A stretch of 64,000 nt of DNA from Marsupella aquatica (taxonomy: Eukaryota > Plantae > Marchantiophyta). Below the pieces are notes generated by a model, which made no database searches, was not told where the DNA came from, and worked only from the letters and a program-made list of their open reading frames with translations. The DNA lies in NCBI GenBank assembly GCA_973895155.1, contig OZ316893.1, positions 26,896,798 to 26,960,797 on the forward strand, in the 5' to 3' direction. Made by a program: the position numbers and the translations under genes. Of the stretch, positions 10,769-47,004 are shown piece by piece (position 1 is the first letter of the stretch; every line of letters starts with the position of its first letter).

Positions 10769-11160
10769 TTAGCCCCTTTGCTTAGCCCTGCCAAGAAGAT
10801 CCACCATGCAGGTAAATTGCACACTGTCAGGCTCGATGCCATAATCTTGTTTCATAACTGAAAAGAGTTTACGACAGTTATCAAGAAGGCCTCCATGACA
10901 ACAAGCTGACAACACTGCTACAAACGTAGTCTCGCTTGGCTTCACAAGGTCCGAATTCATTTTCCCTGAAGAGTGCCAGGGCTTCATGCCCACATCCATG
11001 GTGTGCAAGCTAGTCCACCGATCATTGTGGTCCACGTGACTACATTGCGTTTCTTCATTCTGTCAAAAACTCGTCGGGCTTCATCTATAGTTACTGCCAC
11101 TCTCTGCATACATGTGAACGAGTTCAGTGCCCACACGCAAATCCGACCTCCAGTCTCGAG
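10769..11160 (-). pseudogene. PLS-class PPR gene fragment (C-terminal repeats leading toward the E domain)
   Basis: DEARRVFDRMKKRNVVTWTTMIGG and VKPSETTFVAVLSACCHGGLLD...MKQDYGIEPDSVQFTCMVDLLGRA in broken frames. Confidence 0.85.
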
Positions 11161-11840
11161 CACTGCAATTGAGCCTCGGTTCCCTTCCGTGAGTAGATTA
11201 GAGCAAGACCCGGGACATGAATGCTCCTGAGAATATATTTAGACCAAATTAAGTTCGTCGTATCAACCCTCGAGGTTGTCCAGCCGAGTTCGAAAGCAAG
11301 GACGAAGCCAGTACCCACAGTCAGCATTATCCCAGAGCAGGAAAGAGTACATCTGATCATCGAGACCCAACTCCAAATAATGGGCGACCTGGTTCAAGAT
11401 TTGAAACGAGCTACTTGCGTCGTAAACAACCTCTCCCAAGAACCTCAAACAGAATTTCTTCTACCAATTCAAATCCCAATTCCAATAAGCAGATTGGAGT
11501 GGAATCGAAGAATGTATCCCATAGAGTCTTTGGTTGGATTGAATCAAGTCAAACAAAACACTCACAGCTTGAAAGTGGAACTAGAACTCGTAGTTGACAT
11601 CCCGGTACGTTGACATAAAGCGCATTTAACCAGAAGTACAATAGCGAACAATGTGCTGGAGATTCGAGAGCCGGAACCGTTGTCCGGAGAGGAAGAGGGG
11701 GCAATCTTCAGCTATCCCTGAAGGAGAGGTGACTTCGAATTTAGTAACACAAGACCTGAGAATCGAGGAGCTGCTCAGGAAAGCACCTTGGATGGATGAA
11801 CGGTTAACCCCAGCACGGATGAAGGCAGGGCTCAATTTGA

Positions 11841-13440: not shown

Positions 13441-13641
13441 TGCACAGCCTCTGCCGTTTCGTCGCTCTGGCATCTCTATAAAAGAGAAGATGGCAAATGC
13501 TTCACATAAGCTTCCATTTAGTATTTTTCTTTTCCAGGAGAAAGCTCCAGCTCCCGCCGATGCGTGCAAAATGCAGTTTACAATTTAGAGGGATGGAAAA
13601 TGGTATTTGCTGTACAATCTAAAGAAGCTACCAAGGAATAT

Positions 13642-25188: not shown

Positions 25189-26241
25189 GGCATGTTCCTG
25201 GTCGCCTACAAACCTCTGTATTCCTTTGATCCCCTGAGAAGCTTTGATTGTGGTTTCTCTTGGTCTCATTTAAGGTTTCTCCCATGATCCAAGTTTGATA
25301 GGTTTAAATTGCTTTCAGAGATTTTCTCTCTACAATTCTTAATCCTCTTTGGCTTTTCATCCTGGGACAGTTGTTCAGATTTTGGGTCAGATTTTAGTGT
25401 GACTTCCCTCACTCCTCCAGCCCTCAGATTTGTGGTTTCGCTTTGTTAGTTTTTCTTGGTGGGTGACATATTGTCACTTTTCACTGTTGCTCCTGTTTTG
25501 ACCTTGACCTTGTGACTGCATGAGTTTGGACTTTCCCTGACTTCTGGTCCTTGATTTTTTTGAAATTAGGCTCCTTTTACTCCCTGCTTTACTGGGGTTT
25601 GTTTTTCTGACCAGAGTTTTGAGACTATACAACAAAAAATGTAGAGCTGGGATGTACAGAGTATAGCATGAGAAGGGTGCAACCTGGCTCTTTCTTTTTC
25701 TTGAAAAGAGCACTTTACTCATAAGGAGGAAAGTAAAACCCAATAAAAACGGGAGTCACCGGTCAGCCCAGACGGGTCAAGGACCAACAACCACTCAAGG
25801 GCCAAGACACGTCCAAACAAGTCCGGGTTTGGACTTGCCCGGCAAATAGAGGCTTTAGAGTCCGTCAACCGGCAACTTGTCACCCGGACCGTCCCGGCCA
25901 TGACCTCCCGGCTCTGGCTGGCTCACACCCTGTCGTGCGCATACACATCGCTACCCAACATACATCGCTTGTCACACATATCCAAGCATAGTCACAATCT
26001 AACGACACAAACCTAAGAGAATGATCTACAAATGGAACCCATGTCCATACATGCCCAAAACCCACAATCGCCCCCCTAGCTGGAAGTGAGGTCCCCTAAC
26101 TCTAGCTAGCCATGAGTTCTACAAGGTTGATATACACCTTTTTAGGTGTGAAGATCAGGAGGCCGGGTGCAAGTGAGCCCCATCGATCACCTACCTGCAA
26201 TCTATATCTTCCACGAGAACACAAATGATAACTAGTCGGCA

Positions 26242-27573
26242 TCACCGACATTGAGGACACAACCATGATCCACTAGGAATCATGTGCAAGGGTGGTGTCA
26301 AACACGACATGTGCCATCCTCTAGAACACCGATCACAAATCAACATAGTAGCTGCTCCCTGAGCAGACCCACACAACATACACTTCAAGCCAGCACAAAC
26401 ATGTGCCAAGCTTGGATCCACAGTACCATCAATGTTTGGAAGATGACATGGCGCACAGTTACGCACATGATCCTTCCAAACCATACCATCACGTCCTTCC
26501 AATATAAGGACTCCAGAAGGCAACACTTCACGCACACGTAAGATTGTCCGCCCTGCGGTCACATCAAGCGTTGTTGGTGCTGTCTGCTGCAAATAAACAT
26601 AATCGCCAGGATGAAATCTTCTAATCCTCGTGCGATAACCTCCTCCACGAATAGTAGCATACCGCAAAGTATCACGATGTTGGGCAATAGCAAGGTTGTC
26701 AAAGGCCATGGGCATGACTCTCTCAAAAACTCGTGCCCTGTCTGAACAAACCTTGACCCAAACATCTGGATCATCCAAATCCACAATAGTTGCAACATCA
26801 CGACGAATAGCCGCTGGCAAATCTGGTTCTCTACCATAGAGCAAGAAATAAGGTGAAAAGGATGCAAGTGATGCTTGTCGACTAAAACGATAGCCCATAG
26901 CTAACCAAGGTAGTTGGAGATCCCAGTCTCCCAAATGACCAACCTGCAAGCCATACTTACGCAATCCTCTCTTCACAGTTTGTACAACTCTCTCTACCAA
27001 TCCATCTGCCTCAGGATGATCGCGAGAAGTAGTACGATGATCAATCAGAGCTTGCGCACACAAACTCTCAAAATCTCCACGGAATTCCGTGCCCTGATCA
27101 GTCAACACCTCAGCTGGTGCTCCAAAGTGACTGAGTACTCGATCCAAAAATGTGGTAGCCACTCCTCCACTAGCTTTATCTGGCAATGCCACTAGTTCAA
27201 TCCACTTGGAGAAGTGCTCCACCATAACCAAAACATACCGATTGTGACGTTGGGTAAGAGGCAATGGACCAGCAAAGTCCAAACTCCATCGATATCCCAA
27301 ACCCATGATCGGTAGCGGATGCAACTGGGGAGTGGGAGCATTGAACGATGCTCGCACTCGATCACAAACCACACACTTAGCTATCAATTGTTGGACATCA
27401 GTGTGCATACCACGCCACCAATATTGTGTCTGCAGCAAGCTATAAGTGCGCTTTACACCAAAGTGCCCTAACTCTTCGTGCGCATGTCGCACCAAATGTA
27501 CTCGTTGTGACGGTTTTGGTACAACCAACACCTTCCCATCACGTAGTACCCTCAAAAGATGGTTTCCTTCCCA
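26242..27573 (-). pseudogene. Outer element integrase plus C-terminal PHD finger
   Basis: HEELGHFG...CVVC zinc motif, WSLDFAGP, LTDQGTEF, DGLVER (DDE); C4HC3 PHD CMLC...CDRCSRGWHMSCLTPPL...WLCPQC; in-frame TGA at 27574 separates it from RNase H. Confidence 0.93.
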
Positions 27574-29366
27574 TCAAAATCTCTTGGCTCGTTGTAGAAC
27601 CCTATCACGCTCCTTAGCATCAACATTGCCACCAATGGAGCCACCATGCAAATATTCCAACACTCTCACATCGTTGTGAATATCTTGCTGTCCAAAAACT
27701 ACATCACCAACATCCATATCCGAAGACTCATCATCTACTCCATCCAATGAAGTAAAGTCTACAGATCCACTGCATGCTGGCACCCAACAAAGGAAAGCAG
27801 ATGCATGCCATCCTGGCACCATCTCCTTATCTGTCTCATCATGCCATCGAGCTCCAGTCTCATCCTCTTGACTGGTACATGGATTGCGGCTCAACCCATC
27901 CGCATCCAAATTCACTTTTCCAGGTCTATGCACAACCTGAAAATCATACTCCTGCAACAACAATGCCCATCGTGCAAGCTTCCCTTTAAGCTTATCAGAC
28001 TCCATTAACCACTTGAGAGGTTGATGATCAGTGATCAAGGTGAACAAATTACCAAATAAATAGCAACGGAAATGTGCCACAGCCCACACTGCTGCCAAAC
28101 ACTCTCCCTCATAAGAGCTATACTTAGCCTCTGCTGAATTGTTGGATCTACTGGCATACGCCACAACAAACTCATTCCCCTCATCATCCTTCTGAGTCAA
28201 CACTGCTCCAAGTCCTACTCCACTCCAATCAGTGTGAAGCTGAAATGGTCGCCCTGAAATGGGTCTTCTCAAAATAGGTGTTGACGCCAGTCTTTCCTTC
28301 AATTCTTGGAAAGCATGCTCCTGGTCGTCTCCCCAAATCCACTCCTGATCCAACTTAGTGAGTATAGTTAAAGGTTTAGCAAGCTGGCTAAATCCTTTAA
28401 CATACCTCCTATAGTAGCTCGCCAATCCCAAGAATGCACGAACTCTGCTCACATCAGTAGGACGAGGAATCTGTGTAATGGCCTCCAGCTTAGTCTGTTG
28501 CACACCCAATCCTCCTGGGTAGATAGTGTGGCCCAAATACTCAATCTTCTCTTGAAAGAACTTACACTTGCCGGGATGGAGCTTCAATCCATGTTCCCTC
28601 AATCTCTCAAACACAATCTGCAAGTGTCTAAGATGTTCTTCCACAGTAGAAGAATAAACCAAAATATCATCAATATAACATCTGACAAAATCCAAACCTG
28701 CAAGGATTCGATCCATGACTCTCTGGAACTCAGCTGGTGCATTCTTCAACCCAATGGTAAGAACAACCACTGATACAAACGATCTTTGCCATAAGAATCA
28801 ATCCCCCAGAATGCTATCTTGGACCTGTCAGAATGCCTAATTGGCAACTGATGGTACCCCGCTCTGAGGTCCAACGAACTAAAAATCCTTGCATGCCCCA
28901 CTGCATCAAAGATCTCCTCCGGTGTAGGCATGGCATATCGATCAGATTTTGTCTGACGATTAATAGGCCGGTAATCACCGCACATTCGCCTATCCATGTA
29001 ATTGCCATGCACATCCTTCTTGGCTGGCATCATTGTGGCAGATGCATACTCTCCGTATGAAATCTCCACCAAACCAGCTTCCAACAAATCTTGAGTTCTA
29101 CTCCGAATCAACGCCCTCTCCATATCACTATATCGGTATGGTCGTCGAAAGATTGGCGCATCACTAGCCAATTCAATCTGAATACCAGGGCCCTTCAATG
29201 TTCACAAATCCTTCATGCTAAATGCAAAACAATTCCAATAACTCTTCAAGAATTGATGCATTCGATGTCTCTCACCCCCTGTCAACTTAGGGCCAATTTA
29301 TGGCTCCCAACTCTCCATCAAAGCTGTGATGTCTTCCTTTGGTGTTGAAGAGATAGTCGGTGGTTG
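27574..29366 (-). pseudogene. Outer element reverse transcriptase and RNase H
   Basis: RMCGDYRPIN, LDLRAGYHQ, (F)GLKNAP, CYIDDILV, YLGH, LHTDWS, VAYASR, YEGECLA, TDHQPL, NLDADGLSR; frameshift near 28755, stops at 29202 and 29298. Confidence 0.93.
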
Positions 29367-29559
29367 CTATTTAGCAACAATTTGAGCAGTCCCAACCTGC
29401 TCAACAATCTGTCCTGCCTTGGCCAATCCTGCCATAGGTCCATGGGCTGTCTGCTCGCCCCCAGCTGTGGTCGCTACTGTCTCAGTAGACCGCAAGCTCA
29501 CCAACGGACGATCAGTAACACCAAAAGAGCGCATCCGCAATTGTTCAGCTAATCCCAAG

Positions 29560-30326
29560 CTGATAATCCAAGTCAAGCAATTCAAATCCATGGCTTGACC
29601 AAGGACTTGGCGGCGTGAACTCTCTAACACAGAGGCAACCGTAGTGGTGCCAGTCAAAAATCCCATAGCGCGCTCTCTTTTATCAGCAGTAGGTTCCACT
29701 AACTGCTGTAGAGTTGTATCCCATACAAGTCCAGGCCCACTTGCTCTGAATGCATATGAAGCAGAATGGCTCACAAAAGTGGGTAATGCACAACGTGGGC
29801 GACCAACTACATTGACCACTGCCAATGGAGGTCTATCAGGCTGGGTCACACCTTGTGCACGACGCCCTGGATCCAAAATATCATCCACCACCAAGGCTGT
29901 TGAGCGAGGAATGCTATCAAATGCTCGCTTCAACACCTCACAAGGTAACAAATTAGTCCACCACAAGCGTGGATGATGTGCACGAGAACCCACACGTGCA
30001 GCATCCAATAACACAGCAGGTCCAATCCAAGACTTAACCTGATGAACGCTGGCAACAAGTCAATGACGATCATCACCCAATAATGGCACATTCTCCAAAA
30101 TGTAGGCAGGGGAATGTGTCTGATGCAACTGAAGATGACGCAATACCCGTAACATCTCCCAAAACAATGCAGATCTTGGATCATGAAGTCCATGTCCAAC
30201 TCCACCTCTAGATTGACCCTGACATGGCCAACCCGCAATCATCAAATCAATGGGGCCAACGCGATCCACATGATCCGCCCCCACCAATGAAATATCAGCT
30301 GGCAATGCATGTTGATAACCACGAAC
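29560..30326 (-). pseudogene. Outer element C5 DNA methyltransferase, C-terminal part (motifs III-X)
   Basis: ADISLV, DLMIAGWPCQGQS, DPRSALF, ILENVP, AHHPRLWWTNL, RERAMGF, RRQVLGQAMD; in-frame TGA at 30060. Confidence 0.9.
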
Positions 30327-30546
30327 GACATGTCGTGACATATAGTATCGTAGCCATAGTGTATCGAAAACATACAAGTCACTGGCAATGCATATGTGCA
30401 AGCTGCTAGCAACCAACATCCTGAGAAAAAAGTCCAATCACATTCACAAGTGCCAAGAAAAAGCAACTGAGATGGTATGTACGTAGTGGAGGTGTAAACC
30501 TCTGTATCCCCCCCAGACCATAGTCAAAAGGAGGGCAGAAGAAAAT

Positions 30547-31850
30547 TCAGGTAGCACGTGGAGCACAGGAAGGGCAAAACCATAACCCTTTTGGCACCTG
30601 GGTAAGTTCAGGCCGAAGGCAGAAAAGATGGTACCCTCCATTGCAATTGTCACATAGCAGCATCTGGTCAGCATCATCAATTCGCAAACACACTTTGCAA
30701 GGGTAGTCCACAGGTGGAATCCAAGTAGAAGTCACAATGGTGGGATCCAGGTTAGGCAGATGACAAGGGGCGTAATTCTTGGCATTGTCAGCAATTGTGC
30801 GCCCATCTGCCCCTTGTAACTCTAGCACTCCAGACGGTCGAATAGCTTTGACCCTGAGAATAGTGCGACTGGTAGAGGTGTCCAGGGTGTCGTTAGCTTG
30901 CCGCTACAAGTACACAAAATCTCCCACTTCAAACTTCCTGACCTTGGGCTGAAAAGTGCCCCCTCGTGTGTGTGCATAACGCAGTGTGTCCCTGTGCTGT
31001 GCAATGGCCAAATTCTCCATGGCCATGGGCATAACCCTCCTGAATAGGGCAGCCCTCTCAGAGATCACATCAGACCAAGTCACAGCTGAATCCAAGTCCA
31101 CCACCTGAAGCATGTGAGAAGCAATAGCAGAAGGTGGAACTGGGTGACGACCAAACAACAAGAAGTAGGGAGAAAAGTTAGACAGTGATGCATGTCTAGA
31201 CATCCTATACCCCATGGCAATGTAGGGTAAGGCCAGGTCCCAATCCTCCTTGTTTTTGGTGAGGCAGATCTTCCGAAGGCCCTTCTTGCATGTCTGAACC
31301 ATGCGCTCTGCCAAGCCATCTGCCTGTGGGTGATCTCGTGATGTCCGGCGATGATCAATGAGAGCCTGATCAAGCAGCTCCTGGAACTCTCCTCTAAACT
31401 CTGAGCCCTAGTCAGTGAGACATTCTGCACAAGCTCCAAAGCGGCTGAGAACTTGTTGCAAGAATGCCTGGCTGGTGCTACGGGAGGTCTTATCCGGCAA
31501 TGCCACAAGTTCTATCCACTTGGAGAAATGCTCTATCATGATCATGATGTAGAGATTACCCCGAGATGTTAGGGGTAATTCTCCAGCCAAATCACATGAC
31601 CAACGATAAAACATGCCCTGAATAGGGAGTGGATGAAGTGTGGGTTGCCGAGATGTGAAAGAAGTCCTTACCCTATCACACTGCTCACACCGGGCAATAA
31701 CATCTCGAACCTGGCCATGCATGCCTCTCCAATGATAATGGGGGACCAAGAGGCTATAAGTCCTCTTAACACCAAAATGACCAAGCTCAGAATGTACCTT
31801 ACGGATAAGGCCAACCCTCTCATGAATGGGTGGAACCACCACTTCCCTGT
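30547..31850 (-). pseudogene. Inner element integrase plus C-terminal PHD finger
   Basis: HSELGHFG...CEQC, WSCDLAG, LTD*GSEF, DGLAER; PHD CKVC...CDNCNGGYHLFCLRPEL...WFCPSC; in-frame TAG at 31408 and 30904. Confidence 0.93.
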
Positions 31851-33540
31851 CTGGCAAGCATCGCACAAGATGATCTCCCTTCCACAAGTAGCGCTTGGAC
31901 CTTTGCTGAATTCGGTCTCTCTGGGCAGCAGTAACATGGGTGGGGTACTCCCCATCCTGCAGAAATCTCAGAGTGTCGCTGTCCTCCCATATGTCCACCA
32001 CAGGTTGGTCAACAATGTAGCATGGCAGCAAAGCAAGATAGGTAGATGCATGAAATGTAGGCAGGATGGAAACCTGGTCAAAATCCTGCCGTGCATCTGA
32101 GGGATCATCAGAGGCAATCAAAGGGCTGCGGGACATAGTGTCAGCATTTTGATGTGTCACACCAGGCCTATGAATTACCTCAAAATCATACTCCTGGAGT
32201 ATGAGTGCCCAACGAGCAAGCTTGCCAGTAAGCTTGTCGTTGGTCATCAACCACTTCAAGGGCTGGTGGTCGGTGTAGAGAACAAACCTGGTCCCATAGA
32301 GGTAGGGCCTGTAATGTATGACAGCCCACACAACAGCAAGGCATTCACCCTCATAAGAAGAATAATGACTCTCTGCCTGATTGTTGCTCCTGGATGCATA
32401 GGCAATGACGTACTCTTTACCTTCCTCATCATGCTGGCCCAGAATGGCACCAATCCCAAGGGCACTCCAATCTGTGTGTAGCACAAAGACCTTGTTGAAA
32501 TCAGGTCTTCTCAGCACCGGGTATTCTGAGAGCTTCTCCTTCAAAGTGGCAAATGCTGCCTCAGCATCTGTACTCCATGTCCAAGTCACATTCTTTTTCA
32601 ACAAAGCATACAATGGGTGTGCAATGGTACTGAAATCTTTGATGTAGATCCGGTAGTAATTGCACAACCCAATAAAACTCCTCAAAGTGTGAACATCGGT
32701 AGGAGTGGGCATTTCCAAGATGGATACCACCTTGGCCCAGTGAGCCATGGTTCCATTTGGAAGAATGCGATGCCCAAGATATACTACTGATCTGACAGCA
32801 AATTCACACTTCTTGGGGTGTATCTTTAGGTTCACCTTCTTAAGCCTCATGAATAGCTCCTCAAGGTCAAGTAGATGCTGGTCAAATCCTTTGCTGTGGA
32901 CCAACACATCATCAATGTAGCATTTCAGAAACTCAGCACCTTGCAGAACCTGGTCCATGACTCTTTGAAAGAATATGGGCGCATTCTTCAAGCCAAATGG
33001 CATCACCAACCACTCCCATAGTTGGTTACTACCATGGAAAGCTGTTTTCTTGCGATCCTTTGCAAGCAGCAAAATCTGGTTGAAGCCTTGCCTTAGATCC
33101 ACAAGAGTGAAGATGTCTGAGTCTCCAATGCTGTCAAATATCTCCTCTGGCCGCGGCATGGGGTACCTGTCCTGGGGTGTGACCAGGTTCAATGGCCTAT
33201 AGTCCCCACACATGCGCTTCTCTGTCCACAATCCATTGGAATCCTTCTTTGCTGGCATCACTGTAGCTGCCGCAAAATCTGATGTAGATGGTTGAATAAG
33301 ACCAGCTTCATAAAGCTCTTGGCACCTCTCATCCACCAGCTGCCACTCATGCTTACTCAAACGGTGTCTCTGCCTAAAGATAGGTGTTTCATCAGCCAAC
33401 TCAATGGAGAACTGCATAGTCTTGCACTTACCCAAGTCCTTCATAGAGAAAGCAAACACATTCTCATGCTTGAGGAGCAAATTCAGCAGCTGGTCCTTCT
33501 GTCTTTTACTCAGGTGGTTGCCCATGATAAATGTGTAGTT
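31851..33540 (-). pseudogene. Inner element reverse transcriptase and RNase H (uninterrupted within the 969-aa ORF)
   Basis: RMCGDYRPLN, VDLRQGFNQ, MPFGLKNAP, CYIDDVLV, YLGH, LHTDWS, IAYASR, TDHQPL, NADTMSR. Confidence 0.95.
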
Positions 33541-33869
33541 AGCAACACTAGGAATAGGACCTGATGTACTCGTGCTTGAAGAGCCAGAAGTGCCAGCCTC
33601 TCCACTGTCCAAGCTGCTAGCATGCTGCTGATAAGGTAATGAGGCCTCTCCAAGGCCTGTTGTATTTGTTGCTCTGGTCTGATCCACACTATGAAACTCA
33701 GAAATAATGTCAGCCACATTACAAGGGACCTCCTCCCCCCCAACACTTGGACTGAAGCGGTGAGTGTTGAATAGAGGTAAGTGCACCTGGTCTGGATGCC
33801 ATGTAGCAGCACTGTGGAGGGGTAGGGCTGGAGCTCCTAATGCTGGAGGAATGTACATCTGAAAAAGGA

Positions 33870-34825
33870 TGCAAGTGACCAGAAGCCAAGTGAGAGCATT
33901 GAGATCCATTACCCTGCCAAGTAAAGCAGTCCTGGCCAGCCTGGTGATTTTGGTGTGACCTGTAGTACCGGGTTGGAAGCCCATAGCCCGTTCTCTCTCC
34001 TCAGGACTAGGTTCATCCCATGTACCGGTAGAATGTCGATAAACCAGCCCAAGACCATCACCCTGAAAAGCATGTGCACCTGGAAAGGACACAAATGTAG
34101 GCCAAGCAGCACGGGGTTGTCCAATGGTATTAGCTGGATACCAAGGTGCTGGCTCTTGCCGTGTAACTGGTTGGCAAGAACTGTCAGGATCCAAAATCTG
34201 GTCCACTGTAAGGTTAGTGTCCCTGGATGTGTGGTAAAGAGCCATCTCCAGCAAGGAAGGTGGTGCAAGGTTAGTCCAAAAGTTACGAAGACGATGTGCA
34301 TAAGAACCACAGTGCACTGCATCAATGAGAAGGGTGGTCCCAAGTAGTGCTGGACCACACTGAAATCCTCTTTGACCTGTGGACGCTGGTCAAACTGAGA
34401 TGGAGTATTCTCAATGATATAACCAACAGCAGGATAAAGGGATTGAGCCCAGGTGAGAATCTGAACCAATGCTGTAAAAAGGCCAGAACGAGAATCATGC
34501 AGTCCAGCATCGTGACCAGCAGCTGAAAACCCTTGGCATTCCCAACCAGCTATGATCAAATCAAGGGAGCCAAGAAGGGTTAAGTGCCGGTGCTGGACAA
34601 GCTGGATATCTGGAGGAAAGAAAGAAAATGCAGACTTCCATGCACTGTGTGAAAACTGCTGAGGAAATCGCTCTGAAAATTCCAGCAGACGGGATTCAGC
34701 CACTTGCCTTGCACTTGGATCAATATCCACATAGATGTACTGCTTCACCACCATGCCAGACTTTAGGAGAGCTTCCAAGCCTGTAGAAATGCCACCAAAA
34801 AGCTCAAGCAATGTAAGGCCATCTG
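33870..34825 (-). pseudogene. Inner element DNMT3-like C5 DNA methyltransferase domain (motifs I-X; frameshift near 34328)
   Basis: LELFGGISTG, YVDID, PDIQ, LIIAGWECQGFS, DSRSGLF, IIENTP, YAHRLRNFWTNL, ERERAMGF, RTALLGRVMD; the C-terminal half shares one ORF with RT-RH-INT. Confidence 0.9.
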
Positions 34826-34883
34826 AAGGAGGAGTCCAGGTAATTGGTGCGCTCAAGATTGGGGCTATTGGTTGTCCATTATG

Positions 34884-37800
34884 CTACCCAAGGTCCTCAA
34901 ATTTGTGCAATGCAGCCACCAAAGGTCCATGGGCTGCTTGGAGCCGTTGTACCACCTCTGGTTGATGATCCACGTTGCTGGAAAGTGCTGCTATACGTGC
35001 AGCAGCATGTGCAATAGCCACCTCATCATCATCCTCCTCAATCCAATCCTGCAATGGGTGGTTGACATAGGTAGCTGTGTGCACTGCTTTCAACACACAG
35101 TGGTGAGCCATAGGGGTATGGGCACCATGCAAATCAAGTGGAATGTAGCCCAAGTGTGAGCCATCCGTATGCCAATCAACTCTGTAGTATGCATGCTCAT
35201 GCCAGTTGTCAATGGTAAAACCTGGTGGGAACAAAGCCTCCTGGCCAATGAGCACATCATACGTAGTGGCATTGGTAACCAAACATCTGACTGGGAAATG
35301 CAGTTCCTGATCTGTACCTCCATTAAAAGTGAGAGTGAGTAAAGTAGAACTCTCACCCAGCACATCCTCCACAGTGCCACTAGCAGTCCGAATGTGCCAC
35401 CTGGATTGTTGTAAATGATCAGTCAGCAGTCCCATCTTCTTGGCAAACTGAATGCCCAAGATCACTGGTTGAGCGCCTGTGTCTAGCATGACCACTTGAG
35501 GAGTGTGACCCTCCAACTTGACTGCTGAATTCCTGTTGTCAACAATGGCAATGGTGGTGGAAACTAAAGTCCTGTCACTAGGCACCACTTTTGGCAAATG
35601 ATGAGGTACCTTGTGAAGGGAGTTAGTGTCCACGGTCTTCCCACTCAACAGCATAGCTAGGAAAGATGGAGCAGCATGACCAGAATCAAGTGTAGCTCTG
35701 GTCACACAATCTGCAGCAATAATGTCATCTCTACCACTGGAAATCGGTACTGGGATAGCCAAACCAGTGGAAGCATGCAGTGGAGAAGAAGAAGGTCCAG
35801 TATGTACATGAGATTGGACCTCCAAAACCGGTGTCACAGGGGCTGATGAAGAATGCAGTGAGCCCTCTAGCGCTCTGATGACAGCTCTAGCATCCAGCTG
35901 TAAATCCTGGCAACTGAAAAGTGGAGTGGTAAGAATCCTTTGTGCCATACCGGAGGTGAAATGCTCAAGCAGCTCAGGAAAGACAACTCCCTGTGAAATG
36001 TCAGCAGCACCTGGTGGTGGAATGGATGTAGCTGCAGCTCCCTCCCCCCTCGCCAACAAGGTGCGCTCTTCAGCAAGTGTGAGTGGCTGAAAAGATTGGG
36101 GCATGACAGCCCGAGCTCCCCTGGCTCTAGTCATAGGACCAGCAACAAGACCATCAGCCTGTACAATGCGGCGTGTGGGAGCAATACGGGAGGCAGCACT
36201 GGCCTGCTGGTAAGCAAAATAGGAAGGGCAGAATGAATCTGAAAATTCTGTTGTAAGGCCAGGCTGTGTAGCAGAGGAGAGCACACACACTCACCCATAT
36301 GAGCATCAAATGGCAAGCCATAGAAAGAGCGGGGTATGGGTGCTGAACTGTCAGTGGTGCCTGGGCCAGGGATGGGTTGCACGTGACCAGCCGGTTGAGA
36401 AGGACCAGTAGAGGTAGTGGACTTGCCTTTGATGTTGGCAAGTTGGGCACGTAATGACTCAACCTCATGAGTCAGAGACTGGAGTTGAGTTGCCTGTGCG
36501 TTGTGAGCCTCCTTCTGAGCTGGTTGCTTCTGTTGTTGCTTGGGCAATTTGTGAGCACTAGATGCTTTGCCACTGGAAGGAGGAGCAACTGATGCAGTAG
36601 GAGCCCTCCTAGCTGGTGGGGGAGTGGAAACAGGAGCAGGATGGGTGGCCTGCTGTCGTAGCTGCTTCCTCTCGGGGAATTTAGCAAAACAAACTGCCTC
36701 CAAGTGGCCCACTTTCCCGCAAAAATCACAAGATAGGTCCTCAGCAACAATATCACATTCATTAGCCTTGTGATTGGGGTTACCACAGTAGTTGCAAGAT
36801 GGCAGCATGAAAGCAGCATGGGCTGGCTTGGTCTTGGAACCATACTATGGCACACGGGAAGGAGTGGCCAATGTAGGGGCAGCAGCCTGGTACCTGGATC
36901 GCGGTGGATGCGCAATACTGGCCTCATAATGTGCATGGGCCAACTCAAGTTTCTCAACAGTATCATAGACATTGAGCAGGGTGTAGCTGTCTCCAAACTC
37001 TGAGAATACTTGCTGCAACACTTGCGAATGGAGAGCTGGTGTGCCCTCCAATGCGCGAAGATAGCGATGAGCAGCTTCCAGGTCAGTGATGCTCTGGGTG
37101 TCTTCCTTCAGCTTGAGAAGCCGGCGATACAGCATCTTCAATGTTTCATCGCGCTGCCTCACAAAGGTGGCCAACTGCATGATTTTGTCAGCACTCTTGA
37201 TTGGGAATTCCAATTCAAGAACCTGGAAAAACTCAGCCACGGGATCAGCAAAGGCAGGGGAATCAATGGTGGGAGAAATGCCTGATGTAGCCTGTGCCAA
37301 GACAGTGGGAGTAACTGGTGCAGTGGTGGGAATTGGAGTAGGAGGGGAAGTGGCAGGAGCAGCAGCATGGGCTGCAATGGCATTCTGTAATGCCAGTTGT
37401 GAGGCAGCCGCAATTGCAGTGGCATAGGCAGGGTTAGGCATTTGTGTGACAGCAAGCAGCCGTTGAGAATGCTGCTCATACACATCCAAAGCCTCGTGGT
37501 GCACATACCTGGCTAGCTACTTAAATGCAAAAGCATTTGTGAAATTGCTGCCATACTTCAACTCCAATTCGTAAACGACAGTGTAGAAAGTGGATTTGAA
37601 CTCACGCAAAGAAATAGTGCCTGGCCGCCCGCTGAAGCGTTCAATGCGGCCAGATGAGTGGTTGACGTCCATGCTGTATGTCGGTGAAGCAGGAACAACC
37701 ACGGATGCAGAAGGAGTAAAGGGCAAAGATGTAATAGCAGGCTTCAGGGTAGTGGTGAAGCGACCGCCAAATGTAGCAGAAGGGTTGCGTGGTGTGGGTG

Positions 37801-37936
37801 CTGCTGTTGTCTGCTGACGCCGACGAAATTGTCGAGACTCCAATGAAATTGGCACCAACGGTCGTGGATCACTCCGCAAGTGGTACCTGGGTGTCGGTGG
37901 CGATGAGCTGCTACGAGTCGGCTCCTCTGCTGACAT
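34884..37936 (-). pseudogene. Inner element Gag (two CCHC knuckles) and aspartic protease
   Basis: ERFSGRPG, F.RQRDETLKMLYRRL, CNYCGNPNHKANEC and CDFCGKVGHLEAVC, MLDTGAQP...YDVLIG; in-frame TAG at 37517, 36845, 34884; (TG)n slippage frameshift near 36285. Confidence 0.9.
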
Positions 37937-37946
37937 GCTGCATGCT

Positions 37947-37960
37947 CACCTGGGGTGCCA
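37947..37960 (-). promoter_or_regulatory. PBS-like sequence TGGCACCCCAGGTG just upstream of the inner gag ATG
   Basis: Starts TGG, is preceded by CA-T, and ends 10 nt before ATG 37936; from memory it resembles the complement of a tRNA-Arg(CCU)-type 3' end, not verified. Confidence 0.45.
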
Positions 37961-38574
37961 ATGGGAAAGAAACTGACAAGAAAAAGAAATGGCAACCCCA
38001 AGGCTAGGAAATGAAACCCACAAAGGAAACAAACAATGCGAGGCAGAAATGGGTAGAATGTGTAAGCACGGAGAAACCGTCACCGGAGAAAAAGGACCCT
38101 TAAAACCACCAAATTTTCCCTTGTCGCACTTACCTATGTGTATACATAAGCAAAGCAAAGAATAAGGGAAAACGGGCCCCTAGAACGTGAAAGGAGGGCC
38201 CCCTTTACATGTATACCTCGGGCCCCTTGTGGACCCGGAAACTGGCAACAAAGGTATGCAAAAGTAGGTGGGACGGTCGTCGCACGGCGAAGGAGCAAAA
38301 AGACCAAAAACTAAAAGAAAAGGACCCCAATTAAGTGTATACACATGGGGGCAGGGCGTCGGCAGAAAAATGGTCGTAGTGGGGACCGGCCACGGTGCCT
38401 ATGCACATGCCCTCATGTGAGTCGAAAGACTCTGCAATCGTCGCGCAGCGGACGAGCAACCATGGGGAAAAAGAAACAGAAGAAAAACGGCTTTGGCAAG
38501 GGCGAAAGGAATAGACGAGACCCAAGGCGAGGCGAGGAAAAAGAAAACGGTCCTTTAAGTGCTCGAGCCCTGCA

Positions 38575-38910
38575 TAGGGCTTTGCGCACCCTCCCCCTCC
38601 TCTAATGCTGCCTAGGGCCTCGTGCCTGGCAGGACTGTGACTCCCGAGAGGAGGGAGTCGAATGTACTCCCCCTCTAATATTGTATTGGGCTTCGTGCCC
38701 TCTCCTGGCAATCTCGCTCCTCTCCTGCTCTAATTAATGCCTCATAGGCCTTCGTGCCTGGCAGAAAGACTCCTGTGGGAAGGAGTCGTATGTACTCCCC
38801 TTCCCCCTCCTGTTAATGCAACATGGGGCTGCGTGCCCTCTCTTGGCACTCGCTTCCCCCTCCCCTCTTTAATGTGTCATAGGGCCTCGTGCCCTCTCCT
38901 GGCACTCGCC
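38575..38910. repeat. Degenerate ~65-bp tandem array in the inner element leader
   Basis: TAGGGCCTCGTGCC(TGGCAG / CTCTCCTGGCA) variants near 38575, 38613, 38687, 38746, 38824, 38880. Confidence 0.75.
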
Positions 38911-39896
38911 CCCTTCCTCTCCGTGGCTTGTGTTCGGCTCCCCCTCCTCTCCTCGCGCTTGTGCTCCTGCTCGGCTCCCCCTCGCACTGAATTAAATGCT
39001 GGCCGAGATGCTGGCAAAAGCAAGGGAGGAAGAAAAAAACGCCGAAAGGAGGGCGCGCGGCCCTATGCGCGACCCAGGGGCAATGACGAGCCCCGCATGT
39101 GTATACACAGGCAGGACGGGGAGGCCGGTAGGAGAGAAAGAAAACGTCCGGAGTGGGTAACATGGGCGTGCGGCCCTATGTGCGTGGTCGCCCCCTTGGC
39201 CGTGTGCATACACAAAGGTGCGGCCTCCAGCTGCCAGGCGGCAAGAAAAGAAGGATCAAGAGAAGGGGCGAAAAGGCCCCCCTGAAAACGCAAAACCTCC
39301 CGGAAAGTGAGAAGCGCTCCCCTCGTCTCCTCCTGTGTGTACTCCGCTGGTCCGCAAATTTAAGTGTATACACATAAGTGATGTGTATACAAAGAAAAAT
39401 CTAACTCTAACTCCATCACTAGATTTTTCTTCAAAGAAATTGCGCTGCTGTCGACGGAAAGTGTTGACCGTCGCGAGCAATTGAGAAACACAGCGTTTCT
39501 GATCTTCTTCCCTTCACTCGTCAGTTCTTCTTGAATAAAAGGCGTGATAGAAACAAACATACTGAAATCGAATCGAAAACCGGCGAGATGCCAAGATCGG
39601 CCGGGAGCATCTAACAAATCACTGTGTGAATTCCGTGTACGGAACCGACGAGCAGCCTCTGAAAAACTCTGTCTCACAGCGATTCAAGAAGAACTGAAGA
39701 ACGGCAAAGAAAAACATGCCCTAAGTAGGACCGGGTCCAGGTGTCACACTAACAAACCCCTTTTGCTTCAAGAACAGCCCAGACTCGCTACAAGAACATG
39801 ACACTAACTCAAGTAGTACACTAGCCCTAACCATACCTAGCGGGCATGCGAGGGACATGCCGATGTGCACAAGCGGCACTGTCCCTCGGCATGACA

Positions 39897-42861
39897 GACA
39901 TCCACTGGCAACAATTGTGGGTAACGTTCGACCAACAATGCCACATGACGTAATGAGACTCTACGTGCTGTCTCATCAGTCTCCACATACAAATAACGGT
40001 GCTCAGGAATGCCGGCTTGAAGAATGGCAGCCAATCCAGTGCTAATTCCACCAAATAAATCCAACAAACAAATACCCTCATGTGGATATTGCCATGCAAT
40101 AGGAGTAGTATCCAGTGGGGAAAGAGTCACCGGTCCATTTGCAGTTGACTGCTCTGCTCCTGATTGCGGTGTAAAAGCATGATGCCATGCATCATGTATC
40201 AATCGGGCCGCACTTTGTGGCAAGGCCTGTCCAGTACCCCATACTAGTGTCACAACACTATCAATGGGCAATCCATGCATGAAGTGTTCCTCATGTGTCT
40301 CCTCCACCGTAGGAACATCTGCTGCATGTGCGTTACCCTCAATCAAATTATTAGCTCCAGTAATCAAACTACTAAATGCTGCCAAAGATAATGGTGCAGA
40401 TTTGGGGCCTCCAACAGGTCCACTAAATCGCACTGGCAATTGGCTCAATCGAGCATCTCCAGATTGCCAATCGGGTTGATACAACACTGATTCATTCCAA
40501 AAATCAAGAACAAATCCCATAGGATAGAGAACTGTACATCCTACCAAGACATCATATGACTCAGCCTTAGTCAAAATAGCTCGAGCCTGGATCCGTGAGT
40601 TATCCTTTGAATGATCCTCCTGAATTCTAAGTTCAAGTGCTCGTCGAGTAATATGTTGTGTGGGTGTAGGTCCTCCCAATGAAGTCTGAATGGGAAAGGG
40701 ACACTCCTCCAAATCATCAGGACGCAATCCCAATCCTCTTATCGCAGACTTACCCAACATCAAGGGCTGAGCACCAGTATCCAGTAACACTCGCTCTGGC
40801 TGGTATATTGCTCTAGAAGGCCCAACTAATCGGAAGATATCACTCCGATTATCCAATGATATGACGCTAGGTTTAAACCTAGTCCTCTCATAAGCAGGGC
40901 GCGCTGGTAAATCTATCAACCTTGCCGTTGCTGCATGCCATGTCTCATTACTGGCAATAGGTGGATTCAACTCCACTGCTTCAGAATTGGGCGTTGCTTC
41001 TGCACACGAAGCAACAGCTGGAGTGTCCTCGCATAATGTGGCCGCCAATCTGAACACCTCTGCTGGACTAACTCCCAATGTCAGCATATCTGTAGCAGAA
41101 AATAATGGCGTGCGCACTATAGTAGTGGCCGCCCCCAACAGGGTACTTGTCATCCTTGTCACAACATCACTTGAATCCGCCAACTTTCCCCCACCTGGGT
41201 TAGTCCGAACCGGATTCATAGAGGTAGTTTGAACTGCCTCTAACAATGTAAACGATTGGGGAAGCTTCGTTTGACGACAAATATCCCCTCTCTGAGGATC
41301 CAACTCTACCACTGCTCCTCGTGGCTCAAGGGCTTTAACTGCTCCTCGAGTCAAAGCTGCTGATGCATCAACATGCGCAGTGCCACACATAAATCCCATG
41401 GTGGCAAGATCTCCATCAGCTCCATAAGAGGTTGAAGCTCCATAGGATGTAGAAGCCCTATCACTAGCAGTAGGTCTAACTTGAGAACTAGCCATTGCAG
41501 CTAGTTGTTGCTCCAATTGAGCAATCTTTGCATCCTTAGGATCTGTGGTAACGGTAGGAGCAACATCACCTCCCTGTCTTCCTGCATGTGGCATGCCTCG
41601 ACCACGTCCACCACCTCTACCTCCTCTTCCACACGTGGTCCTCCCCGTCGTAGTTCAGGATGAAGTACAAAACACCTATCTTTGGAGTGTCTAGAAACTC
41701 CACAATGATCACACTGTCGTTGATCAGGTGTAGATGCCCCTCCTTGCCCCCTATTATCTGGGCAATATCTTTGTGCATGATCCCCACCACAAGTCCAACA
41801 TCCTGATTGTTGTCCAACATAAGAAGACACAGATCTCTGACTAGTAGATTCCCGTGTTGTAGGCTTCTCTCTCTGGCTCTTACGTGCAGTAGGTTGCGGT
41901 GTGGGCGTCGATGCAACCTTTGGTGCTTCCTTGGCAAATCCAGAAGTCACCACCTTCTCATTCACCATATTGAGCTCAATGCGCTCAGCAAGTGCAAAAA
42001 CTATAGCCAATATGGGATCTGAATCCCTCAATAGAGTGGCATCTCTCACTCTACGACGCAACTCCCTATCCAGAATTGCATACCAAAATTGGACCGCTTG
42101 GGCCTCTGTCACTCCTTGTGTGACCGTAATCAATCTTCGCATACGAGTGTATGCCTCACGTAGGCTCTCTCCAGTCTTGCGCTGGAACTCTTGAAGACCC
42201 TTCAACTTATCGGTTCTCACACCCTGGTAGTTCTGCTTCAATACTTCAAAGAACTTCATCACAGGGTTAAATGTTGGCGCAGCTCCACTCCCAGCCACAA
42301 TCACACCGGTAGGAGTAGCGGTGGATGCTGATGGAGTGCCACTCTGGCTAGTGCTGCTAGAAGAAGCCGCAGCTGTAGCAATGGGTTGGGCAACCGCACT
42401 TGTGCCATAAGTGATGGACACATAGTTTGGTGACCAATGCTGTCTCCATGCCTCAATATCCACTAAATGAGCCTTTTCGAAACTCATGGTAGTCATCCAT
42501 GGGTGGCCCCTCCAAATGCTGAAACAACCCTTTCCAAGCCATGAAAGGTGTGAACAATGTGGCATTACGCATTGGTATCAAACTCTCGGATGAAATCATC
42601 CAAATCAATCGTGCCAACTGCACCAGAGTATCTCCTCGGTTCTTTCGTGGCCCCATACATCTCTTCCATATCCCACAACAATGGCACAGTCACTTGATGT
42701 CGAGGAGAACTGGCTACTAAGTCCTCGTCAGAATCACTATCTGAAACCCCACTTGTGACCACTAACAATGTCGTCGGCCAAAATTGCACTCCACTCCGAG
42801 TGAAACCAGACCGTCGTCCCTCGGGTAGCCCCGTATCACTAGAGGACTTCGTGATGACCAA
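39897..42861 (-). pseudogene. Outer element Gag (two CCHC knuckles), aspartic protease and DNMT motifs I-II
   Basis: RRYSGAVG, FQRKTGESLREAYTRM, CWTCGGDHAQRYC, CDHCGVSRHSKDRC, LLDTGAQP...YDVLVG, LDLFGGISTG, YVETDE; several frameshifts in gag. Confidence 0.9.
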
Positions 42862-42913
42862 TTTTCCCTAAATGGTCACCATCAACTCACCATTCTCAAT
42901 AATCAACCGATTG

Positions 42914-43313
42914 GCGAAACGGTGTTCCGTGGATACCCATCACTCAATTGCGGAACGGTGTTCTATAATGCACCACCACCAATCTCCAAGACAATTGACA
43001 GAACGGTGTTCCGTCAATTGCTTAGTTGCGAGACAATGTTCCGCACCAACCCTTCTTCACAACGTAGACGAGATGTGTAATGGGGCAGACCAATCTTCAA
43101 TATGCACCCACGACGGAATAGTGTTCCGTGGAAAACCAATCTTCCCAAAATTATCACAACAAAATGGTAATCTGTACCCGATCGTTCTCCAATATGCACT
43201 CACGACGGAACAGTGTTCCGTGGAAGACCAATCTTCCCAAAACTACCACGACGGAACGGTGTTCCGCGGTCAACCAATCTCCAATATGCCCTCTCAACGG
43301 AACGGTGTTCCGT
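42914..43313. repeat. Array of about 8 palindromic 17-mers (ACGGAAC-NGT-GTTCCGT) in the outer element leader
   Basis: Copies at 42914, 42950, 42998, 43028 (degenerate), 43113, 43205, 43251, 43297. Confidence 0.85.
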
Positions 43314-46300
43314 GGAAGACCTTCACAACCCTATTGCTGCGAAAACCCCGCCCGCAATTCCCGGACAAAGTCACTGTTCACTCACTTTGTCGTTTTCCTT
43401 GTGTCCTAGGTCGCTGCCGCACCTCGCCTCTTCGCGGTGCACTACATCGCCTCTCCGCGGTGTGCTACGTCGCCATAGGGGACACAATTCGTCAACATCC
43501 AACGTCGCTTTCTTCAAAGAAATGCACTATCCGTCAACATTAAGCTTGACGAATCTCAAATCCGCAAGATACAACTTCAACTATCAACCCCCGATTGGAA
43601 CCATCCCCAACCAGAATCACAAACAATCACAAGTCCGACCAACTTGCCTTCACAAAACCGCAGTGAATACTCTTAGCAATCCGCGCATAACAATCGACGA
43701 CAACTTCTGATCATCGACCACACATTCACTCCTCCAACATGCTGCAATGTCGATCGATGCAAATCGCAACTCCAAACGCGCAACTCAACAACTCAAAGCT
43801 CCGCATTCACTCAAGCTTTCTCAACACCAACTTGTAACAGATCGAGATACCAACAATCCGTTCAACAACAAAACCCGATCCGAGATACCACGAATCGTCA
43901 ACAACAAAACCACAACGAAATCGAACTTCTGTTTGCACAATCCGTACATCAGAATTCGAAGCTGATCTTTCAATGTAATCTTCTTCAATAGTGCAAATCG
44001 AACAACGATCGGTGCTAGTCCAACAACGATCCCATCCGACGCGATCACACATGTATGTCAAGCCCAACGCACCTTGTGCTTCAAGGAATCCACGTTACAT
44101 GCACACAACCTGGTCAGCCACACCATAGCCACCAAGCTCATGCTCAAAGGCTCAACATTGAAAGATGAGGCCTTTGAGCCAACACAAGGGGATAACTATC
44201 CCTCACACCAACTCAAACTAAACACAGTGCTCATATAACACACATACAAAACCTCTATACCTAGATAGTACGATATACTTTACTACCACTCTAAATGGTG
44301 TGACACCCCACCCCGACCCTGTTCTGGCCCGACCCCCGGCTTGTCCCGGCCTCTCCCGGCCTGACCCCTGGCCTGTCCCTGCCTATCCCGGCCTATCCTG
44401 GCCCGGCCCGGGAAATAACAAGGAACATCCGGTATTTGGGTCGATTTTCGCCCGGCAACTCGACAAGTTGCCAATCACTTCAAACCTGGAAACAAGTAGG
44501 CAATGGCAACAAAGGAAGAAGGAACAGCAACTAAAATGGCCACCAGACCAATAAGAAAATTACCTAGGAAATAATCAATTATATTCCAAAGTGTAATTGC
44601 GATAGGATATGGACGGATCGGCTGCAACTGGCAGAATATTCCCTGAGCCACATCCTTCAATTACGAGGAAGGTAAGACGTATCGTACGAAGTACTGTACA
44701 ATACATTATACGGTGTTGTATCTGAAAGGTAAATACGGAGTAAAGTAAAACATAAATACAGCGGTCGGGTGACGGCGATCTGAGGTGCCGTAGAATCGAT
44801 CACGGGTACAGCACTAGGGAGCCCAACGCATTTGGCGTGCGGGAAATCGCCGGAAATCTGATTGTCAGTCAGTTGGGCAGAGGGCCACCCCGTCCAGGCC
44901 CAACCTGATCTTGTCCGGCCCGGCCCTGCCAATGGGCCAGGGCGTCAGGCACTGAGCCGCAGACGAACCCGATCTTGTCCGGCCCTGTCCTGGCCCTGCA
45001 CTTAGCTGAGCTGAAGACGAACGAAGCAGAGTACAAGAGTACACCGATCTCTCTCTAAGTGCACACTCCGTAAGTGAACACCCTGGATAAATGCAAGGTG
45101 CCGAGTTCTTCCCTTTCGTTTCCTACCAGTTTTGTAAGTGCATAGAGGCTTGCACTGAACGATAAATATATGTAAGTGCAACAGTTCCATGAGGGTTATG
45201 CACACTCATGGGTAACCTCACAATTCCTTCCATTTACAATCGATACGTGCAAATTTTTGTGATACAGATTAATTTGCACTTAGGTTGGGGTATACAATTT
45301 ATGAAAGGAGTCATTTTGCCGTCCATAAAATGCAAATTCCAAGTGTTTGCACTTGAGGATTAGTGCAAACCCTCAGTAAATGCACACCAGAGGCTTCTTC
45401 CCGGGAGTGTGCACCTAACGAGAGGTCCCTGTAGGTCTGCAGCCCAAGTCGAGCTCTTCCTTTCCGTCGTTGAAGCTCTTGGGTCGGCGAAGAGGCCATT
45501 CGAAGAGTGCTGAATGAGTTTGGTCGTAGATAGAGGTGCGTGAGTGCGTGAGTCAGTGAGTCAGCACGCAGCAGCATTGCAATTTTTTACTCATATTGTA
45601 GTACTGTTTTGCGCCTGTTGGCAGCAGAATTGCAAGCGAGCTTTCGAAGGAGAGAACTGTACAGCAGGAGACGAAGACGGCGATGGCGGAGCAGGGAGTG
45701 CTGGAGGAGGAGGAGTAATAGCAGCGGCAGCAGCACCAGCAGCCTGGAACTGCCGGCCAGCAAGCCAAACGGAGAGCAGCAGCAGAACGAGGAGGAATGG
45801 TGTGACGATTGTTGATGATGACGAGGAGGAGGTGTAATCGATCTTGATCATTTCGTTTCATTTGTCGGCCCAACGAGAAGGCATTCGCTGATTCTATCTG
45901 CCCTAGGCAATCGCTGGTGCCCACGCCCTCCCTTCTATTTTCTACACCCTTGCCCGCCCTTCCTTGCCAGCTTGTTCTCTCGGGCGCGGTCCCTTATTGT
46001 TCTCTCTTGCTACATCTCGTACTAGATTTGCTCGCGCTTCTTCTAGACGTGGTCGATGTCGTCTCGAAGCGACTGGAAAGGAGGATTAGTGCGCAGAAAG
46101 GATCAGTCCGGAGTGGAGGATGCATGAAATGGAAAGAGGGAATGATGTCGTAGGGTTTGGAGATAGATGGATGCAGAGAACGGTGGCGTTTTCGAGGCCG
46201 TGTTCGACCGGTCCTGAAATTTTGATAGCGTCCTGTTGACAGTCATCTTTTTCATTAAAGACGTTCTGTCTGCGGTCGACGTAGCTCTGAAGAAAGGAAA

Positions 46301-47004
46301 GGGAAGGAAAACGGTGAGCAGGCGGCACCGTAGTTTTCGGTTCCAAGGGGGGGTTGGTTTGGAGGAATAATAGATCTAAAGGGAAGAATAGTAAGGACTG
46401 TTGTAGTTCCGGTACCGTACCACGAGGTCTGCAGGAGGGATGGTCGCCTTTTCTCGGGAGGCGACGAAAGAGCAGGTTATTTTCTCACGATGGGAATGTA
46501 GTGGTGCGGTTCTGGAAGTGAACCCCGGCGTAGACGATGGCAGGGGTGGTGCTATTGGTAGGTCACAGGAGGAATGAAAGACAAGGAAAGCATGTGGACT
46601 GACATAAGTGCAGCACGTAAATGATGGCTCGGCTCTTGGGTGTGGTAGGAAGTTACTCTTGGCCAAACGCCACAATCTCTCGGAGAAGAACGAACTGTAT
46701 TGTGAGCGGGCAACGGATTGGGAGGCTTAGGTAGTAAGGGGTGTGGATTAGCTCTACTCCGGATTCCGGTCACCTGTTGTCTCTCAGTTTGATCTTCCAT
46801 CATCTGTCGTTCTACTTCGTTGTCTCAAAACTTGAGACAGTAAAATTTTGCCTCTGCGGACCGCTTGGCACCAGGACCTCCTCTCACTCCTCCAGGGTAC
46901 TTTCCCGCCTGTCTGATCAAATCCTTCCTCGTACTTCCTATTCTACGTCTTTTGTCCTAATGCCCGGTATTATCTGATCAAAGGGGAGCCGAGACTCAGG
47001 GGAA

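Follow-up and report, generated by a model that had tools for sequence, protein, structure and literature searches.

Two nested retrotransposons lie within a 64,000-nucleotide stretch of the liverwort Marsupella aquatica (GenBank assembly GCA_973895155.1, contig OZ316893.1, positions 26,896,798 to 26,960,797 of the forward strand), referred to here as the window. Both are decayed, single-repeat members of a Gypsy-like clade that carries a C5 DNA methyltransferase (DNMT) and a PHD finger. This clade appears to combine the copying of a long terminal repeat (LTR) retrotransposon, the layout of a split-repeat element, and insertion by a DDE integrase at an internal palindrome. We consider it likely that its elements insert at a palindrome located inside the terminal repeat, their cDNA being probably end-joined and then probably cut there by the integrase; the anatomy alone, that is, the arrangement of a 5' end segment (A) and a 3' end segment (B), is in our view highly probable. 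According to the textbook view, a retroviral-type integrase acts solely on the ends of linear cDNA; LTR circles, for their part, are mostly regarded as dead ends. The present clade appears to insert routinely through an internal cut in a permuted LTR.

Both elements lie on the minus strand, the outer one (44305..25931) being interrupted by the inner one (39896..30331). The inner element starts with TGTCATG, ends with CACGACA, and is flanked by TGTC on its 5' (39897..39900) and 3' (30327..30330) sides, a 4-bp target-site duplication (TSD) that is identical at 4/4 positions, other lengths giving no match (0/3 for 3 bp, 0/5 for 5 bp). A 5-bp duplication, ATGTC, was rejected, as it would need the element to end in GAC instead of CA. 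The outer element (TGTCAC...CACGACA) lies between GGGG (44306..44309) and GGGT (25927..25930), a 3/4 match that is weak taken alone, since the flank is G-rich and three matches arise at other lengths too. The outer DNMT frame runs up to the inner element, where it stops at a codon boundary, and continues in frame 0 past the second copy of the TSD; the latter piece matches PF00145. The original observation that duplication and frame restoration fix the inner ends was borne out. Moreover, empty sites for both insertions are present in other copies among public run contigs (joints 30326-39897 for the inner element and 25930-44316 for the outer). Neither window copy has an LTR pair, as had been proposed: blastn comparison of each tail with its own leader at word size 7 gave no match in either element. 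In shuffle tests, the best local score was 28 for the outer element (p=0.37) and 33 for the inner one (p=0.02 with 200 shuffles, one of 12 comparisons), the latter being a 42-nt patch of low identity distant from any end. The further proposal of an LTR-less family did not hold, since other copies carry split direct repeats whose LTR equivalent is B+A.

These repeats were defined by joints in contigs from four public runs of three studies, mapped on the region. Of 285 joints, the tables hold the 15 best supported, and of 157 rows with intervening letters, the 12 best supported; the run data are contigs, and their depth does not equal copy number. The end of A is joined to the start of B (A/B joint) at 39535-30507 for the inner family in 4/4 runs (depth 5086 in run X1) and at 43976-26067 for the outer family in 3/4 runs (depth 454-1025). 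The reverse, B-A joint was found for the inner family (39897-30331) with 2 bp in between: GC (depth 2450 in run X2), with GT and AC variants. For the outer family, B-GC-A occurs in one row among those listed. Position 39896 is an insertion end, from which 13 contigs of run X4 depart with unlike sequence (agreement 0.4), as do three in run X6. Inner A thus spans 39535..39896 (minus strand, 362 bp) and inner B 30331..30507 (minus, 177 bp, from ATAC to CACGACA); outer A spans 43977..44305 (minus, end +/-1) and outer B 25931..26067 (minus, about 137 bp). B would be the 5' part of U3, and A the 3' part of U3 plus R and U5. B and A are linked by CACGACA-GC-TGTCA, and GC is missing from the inserted ends. 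The depth of A is of the same order of magnitude as that of the coding region, a weak measure of solo copies. A weaker outer A/B joint (44029/26068), 53 nt short of the main one, occurs in 2/4 runs and may reflect a subfamily or a resected joint.

The two repeats are bordered by predicted priming sites. The inner polypurine tract (PPT), a G-run at 30508..30514 (minus) and the longest purine tract in the inner tail, stands directly before B; the outer one, AGGGGGG at 26071..26077 (minus), stands 3 nt before it. At the other side, the stretch at the end of A is complementary, in both window families, to a segment inside A, 160-190 nt upstream. In the inner family, the predicted primer-binding site (PBS; 39521..39536, minus) is a 16-nt perfect complement of the predicted self-primer (39682..39697, minus); in the outer family, the predicted PBS directly after A (43965..43976, minus) is a 12-nt perfect complement of the predicted self-primer at the RNA 5' end (44155..44166, minus). 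Each is the longest inverted repeat in its leader, equaled in 0/2000 and 1/2000 shuffles, respectively, and a self-complement is located at the end of A in four sequence-distinct families (the two in the window, one in a second host, and one in a third lineage, L147, both described below). The layout matches that of a Tf1-type self-priming PBS. A candidate PBS of the tRNA type, a TGG near 37960 ahead of the inner gag, was rejected, because the joint maps the end of A 1.57 kb upstream, to the self-complement. A PBS after the 5' repeat, here predicted and of the self-priming type, and a PPT before the 3' repeat are features of canonical Ty3/gypsy elements. Since the PPT abuts B and the self-priming site abuts A, reverse transcription is expected to restore a B+A LTR. 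Canonical elements have two full terminal LTRs whose tips serve as attachment (att) ends; here the termini lie at the internal palindrome.

The coding content places both elements among Gypsy-like sequences. Each encodes gag, an aspartic protease, a C5 DNMT, reverse transcriptase (RT), RNase H, an H2C2/rve DDE integrase, and a PHD finger, and in both the coding regions are disrupted by stops and frameshifts. By domain matches, the inner element carries this series, with a zf-CCHC in gag, at 30547..37945 (minus), behind a non-coding leader with tandem repeats (37946..39520, minus). The outer series is split by the inner insertion into gag, protease, and the 5' half of the DNMT (39897..42660, minus; frameshifted) and the 3' half of the DNMT, RT, RNase H, integrase, and PHD finger (26242..30326, minus). 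PF00145 sits between protease and RT in both elements, was also found in L147, and keeps its catalytic Cys motif (GWPCQG in the outer element, GWECQG in the inner one). The order gag-protease-RT-RNase H-integrase with a DDE integrase is that of canonical Ty3/gypsy elements (Metaviridae). The nearest solved structures to the integrase are those of Ty3 and prototype foamy virus, and a D-to-E offset of 35 is typical of the clade: it was found in 124/124 motif-bearing proteins from the top 77 Pol matches and an integrase search, lower matches mixing 35 and 36. No tyrosine recombinase was found in the 15+8 open reading frames (ORFs) of the window elements or the two L147 ORFs scanned, and no chromodomain was matched in the window elements.

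The closest named Pol homolog, at 83% identity, is from Calypogeia fissa, and homologs of the family occur in liverworts, Klebsormidium, Closterium, and chlorophytes. In an RT-RNase H tree, the window elements and L147 form one clade with sequences from Calypogeia, Marchantia, Klebsormidium nitens, Closterium, and Tetraselmis (SH-aLRT 98); the clade comprises 88 of 122 rows of a tree that was built by a quick method and held no DIRS rows, seven short rows having been dropped. Four K. nitens proteins fall within this clade, which holds both window elements.

Several further features of the elements were observed. An in-frame TAG followed by CAA (K*Q) lies between DNMT and RT at the same place in the outer element (29367-29369, minus) and in L147 (3489-3491); it is a candidate for stop-codon readthrough, and the inner family lacks a stop there. 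Upstream of the PPT, the 3' untranslated region holds 25 nt, a candidate cis element, that are nearly identical in the outer element (about 26150-26185, minus) and L147 (about 6760-6790). Tandem repeats occur in both leaders (38589-38916 in the inner element; 42915-43326, in 46-bp units, in the outer one), with large arrays in the leaders of second-host copies too.

Copies from a second plant host reveal the fuller arrangement. A clade-specific scan of metagenome contigs returned at least 601 stretches, including 537 relatives, of which the best 80 (76-85% identity in RNase H) were analyzed. These 80 loci yielded 55 PPT-adjacent B records, two of them cut by contig ends, and the remainder was grouped by 3' flank. 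A script gave 20 B-A-B, 18 single-B, and 4 B-A ends; after duplicates were merged by hand (L129 with L120, L132 with L131), there were 19, 18, and 3 distinct ends, respectively, those of the B-A type being cut or truncated. Nine copies of the form A-coding-B-A-B are complete, and all nine have a 4-bp TSD (seven exact, two at 3/4). None of 16 distinct first A repeats (A1) is preceded by B, and the normal paired LTRs that would have made the window copies mere derivatives are thus missing from these copies. The spacer between B and A is 2 nt long in all 22 distinct cases and in L147 (GC 12, GT 5, AC 4, AA 1, AT 1; n=23), and its variants are what would be expected if GC, lying in a CAG/CTG context, decayed by C-to-T changes. 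The A/B joint, in contrast, carries indels in 8/19 copies versus 0/22 at the palindrome (Fisher p=0.0008; joint indels scored by eye, partly against subfamily norms); one or two letters are lost or gained, with one 150-bp deletion.

Within an element, the two copies of each repeat resemble one another. B1 and B2 are 88-96% alike, lie about 470 bp apart, and share private variants; the best match of a repeat was the element's own A2 in 7/9 cases and its own B2 in 9/18, as would be the case for LTRs renewed in every cycle. All 14 A1 copies contain a TATA box, and in 11 of these 14 the self-complement follows about 30 nt later. Single-B and B-A-B copies are diverged to a similar degree and intermixed on the tree (p=0.42-0.56; 18/18 single-B and 17/19 B-A-B copies, the nested pair of L083 excluded). 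No solo A-B was seen among the loci analyzed, which were themselves selected by Pol. B ends in a tandem 15-bp unit, as noted at the B ends of L083, L092, L098, L102, and L122. Searches of viral contigs returned only other RT viruses and unrelated elements, or no match.

A third lineage is represented by L147 and L148, plant-type contigs in a cyanobacterial genome assembly that are probably plant contamination. Both are nearer the outer than the inner family in the RT-RNase H tree, and both carry CACGACA-GC-TGTCAC and a PPT before B. L147 has a 13-nt self-complement after A, and L148 has a B-GC-A-B arrangement. The circularity of L147 by assembly overlap was discarded as a sign of a physical circle, being expected from collapsed repeats.

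In the mechanism that we propose, the RNA would span from inside A1 to inside A2. Tf1-type self-priming, together with PPT priming, would yield a linear B-A-coding-B-A cDNA. The LTR equivalent of the family would be B+A, split at an internal 10-letter att palindrome, GACA-GC-TGTC. The cDNA tips (ATAC..., ...AAT/TAT) would not be used as att ends; instead, they may be joined imprecisely, before or during insertion. Indeed, the A/B joint is where the predicted tips meet, and the presence of indels there, with none at the palindrome, points to imprecise tip joining. The integrase would then cut the palindrome after CA on both strands (GACA^GC-TGTC), leaving CA-3' ends with a 2-nt overhang, as from retroviral 3' processing, and the cut ends would be inserted with a 4-bp spacing. 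Cutting a two-LTR form at the PBS-side palindrome would give the fertile A-coding-B-A-B copy, which alone possesses a second R. From a one-LTR circle, or if both palindromes were used, A-coding-B would result, as in the window; having no second R, this form is a predicted dead end. The earlier suggestion of a non-standard replication or integration route may thus be half right: integration looks odd, whereas replication looks standard, with a PPT, a self-priming PBS, and homogenized repeats.

Several observations weigh against this mechanism. All its steps are deduced from inserted copies, and the contigs of the second host come from metagenome assemblies. In that host, the one single-B copy that is complete, L080, has no TSD (TAGC/ACTC), so that TSD-bounded A-coding-B is represented by the two window copies alone. 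The self-complement is misplaced in 3/14 A1 copies and beat 99/100 shuffles in only 8/14. A two-LTR circle contains two identical palindromes, yet A-B-A-coding-B accounts for 0/16 5' ends against an expected share of up to 0.45 (P from 7e-5 to 0.01), and an additional bias is therefore required. The age test has low power, as the copies come from one burst. B1 has one 15-bp unit fewer than B2 in 4/18 elements and more in 1/18, and for one such length difference, two assemblies of a single insertion (L092 and L135) disagree.

The single-repeat form could also have arisen after insertion, by recombination between B1 and B2 of A-coding-B-A-B, much as solo LTRs form and with the same att chemistry. 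This is a realistic, if somewhat doubtful, possibility, and it concerns the origin of that form only, being compatible with insertion at the palindrome. The high similarity and close spacing of B1 and B2 would permit such an exchange, both ends and the TSD would survive it, and the tree shows single-B and B-A-B copies intermingled. On the other hand, single-B copies show no greater age than B-A-B copies (a comparison of low power), a single B at 18/37 resolved ends is a high share for a 177-bp repeat, and solo A-B is missing from the Pol-selected loci. We find it unlikely that no free circle is formed and that the integrase cuts the internal palindromes of linear B-A-coding-B-A. Here, cutting both would release A-coding-B, whereas a PBS-side cut alone would insert both pieces, whose tips would then be joined in the chromosome by host repair. 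Such a route accounts for both forms, the scarred A/B joint, and the similar ages of the forms, and with a linear substrate left and right could be distinguished more easily, in line with the lack of A-B-A starts among the 16 copies. It would require that the complex retain the 177-bp B piece and that, in 11/19 cases, repair of a double-strand gap be precise.

The A1-B1-A2-B2 order is shared with PAT, Ngaro, and VIPER as these are described (PMC4157794, PMC6681497), and copying might follow their pattern, the RNA running from A1 into B2 with a templated A/B joint, repeat jumps closing a circle, and the DDE integrase serving for insertion only. This is very improbable to us, since in the second host and both window families the A/B joint coincides with the points set by PBS and PPT, the joint differs from copy to copy, B1 and B2 have private variants in common, and RT-RNase H groups with Gypsy-like sequences in our tree, built without DIRS rows. 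Finally, the view that these are ordinary LTR retrotransposons trimmed by deletion, or Ginger-like DNA transposons with an RT cargo, is largely refuted and keeps next to no probability. The TGT...ACA ends, the 4-bp TSD, and a PHD finger, known in Ginger1 as described (PMC2836005), speak for it. Yet the end points are identical in two window families and across three hosts or lineages, no terminal inverted repeat (TIR) extends beyond 4-7 bp, the TSDs are varied, RT, RNase H, and integrase share one Pol, PPT and PBS are conserved, and in none of 16 copies is A1 preceded by B.

Compared with known systems, the closest likeness in structure is KnitGypsy-Dnmt3 of K. nitens. According to the legend of Fig. 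4c (PMC5890265), it has a DIRS-like repeat arrangement with Gypsy domains, and the legend of Fig. 1e defines the DIRS arrangement as A-coding-B-A-B. It has a Dnmt3-like DNMT in a Gypsy Pol, and its A-coding-B-A-B repeats are those of our family, the window copies being A-coding-B. In the parts of that article available to us, there is neither a TSD nor a PBS or PPT, and no mention of a PHD finger, an att palindrome, a single-repeat form, or a mechanism, unlike in the present analysis. The hosts differ (K. nitens there; land plants here, with the closest named proteins from liverworts). The repeat order was therefore already noted in a 2018 legend (de Mendoza et al., PMC5890265); the mechanism reading is new as far as we found, in a literature judged mostly from listings, in which only that article turned up for the structure and none for a permuted LTR or its mechanism.

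Split direct repeats are otherwise described, in the accounts at hand, for tyrosine-recombinase elements (PMC4157794, PMC6681497). PAT, TOC, Ngaro, and VIPER have the same A1-coding-B1-A2-B2 order but insert by a tyrosine recombinase, whereas the present clade has an H2C2/rve DDE integrase, TG...CA ends, and a 4-bp TSD. It thus shares the split direct repeats of DIRS elements and lacks their tyrosine recombinase. Self-priming is documented in Tf1/sushi and plant Tcn1 elements of the Ty3/gypsy type, which, as described (PMC6317226), also share a PBS complementary to the predicted RNA 5' end, a PPT, and the protease-RT-RNase H-integrase order; they have two full terminal LTRs, whereas here the termini lie inside the LTR, a PHD finger and a DNMT are present, and no chromodomain was matched.

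The proposed cut is reminiscent of the action of retroviral DDE integrases on att-att palindromes within double-stranded DNA. In HIV and foamy virus, this is a side route at a true tip-to-tip junction, whereas here the palindrome would be templated in U3 and is apparently the sole site. Foamy virus integrase reportedly cleaves the 2-LTR junction palindrome internally. HIV-1 integrase is described as cutting this palindrome internally (PMC1905944), and 2-LTR circles as able to feed integration (PMC4372172). Ginger1, Ginger2, and GingerRoot, as reported, share TG...CA ends and an integrase-like enzyme that cuts embedded ends (PMC2836005, PMC6839031), and Ginger1 also a 4-bp TSD and an occasional PHD finger (PMC2836005). 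The likeness to Ginger that was originally suggested thus holds for the ends; it fails for the TIRs of 40-270 bp, the CCGG/CCGT targets, and the lack of RT described for Ginger1 (PMC2836005), none of which applies here. GingerRoot is described with a 6-bp TSD and without RT, unlike the window elements (PMC6839031), and no named Ginger protein appears among the 120 listed of 326 integrase matches. Troyka was rejected as a match, as the CG...CG termini and 3-bp TSD reported for it (PMC12440569) are not those of the window elements, and DAM-LTRs, from the available part of the preprint, differ from the present clade (bioRxiv 10.64898/2026.05.21.726589).

If confirmed, insertion at the palindrome would be a natural case of the 2-LTR-junction cleavage known from HIV and foamy virus as a side reaction; it would also link Gypsy, Ginger-type, and split-repeat DIRS elements. 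It supplies a defined 10-bp integrase substrate and a testable role for a retrotransposon-borne DNMT. In a more speculative version, this green-plant lineage of Gypsy-like elements would have given up insertion by the tips, its DDE integrase would be a site-specific endonuclease for a U3-templated palindrome, tip joining would be required for a fertile copy, and the element's own DNMT would mark the AGCT/CAG core of one palindrome so that only the PBS-side cut occurs. We regard this full version as distinctly unlikely; if true, the marking would explain both the missing A-B-A-coding-B and the retention of the DNMT, and methylation as the reason for PBS-side use is speculative. A high-copy family of this kind would evade LTR-pair finders, in agreement with the prediction that LTR-based tools would miss it; indeed, the REXdb survey, as it is described, required two terminal LTRs. 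Copies should be datable from their A1/A2 or B1/B2 pairs.

Members of the clade insert into each other, as seen for the inner element in the outer one, an outer-type end at 27512 (run X2), and the nested pair L083/L084. The PHD finger may have a targeting role. The outer element's host sequence is a GCCGGGA-rich repeat (25800-25930 and 44306-44400), with the empty site known from other copies. Elsewhere in the window, degenerate repeats of about 305 bp with an inverted partial copy occur at 10981-13447, where one scanned ORF had no Pfam match; we take them to resemble a pentatricopeptide repeat (PPR) pseudogene. An M48 peptidase fragment (exons; 21320-21934, plus strand) lies on one side of the nest. 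On the other side, a leucine-rich repeat (LRR) receptor-like kinase occupies one 881-aa frame (46978-49623, plus strand), about 2.7 kb from the outer 5' end.

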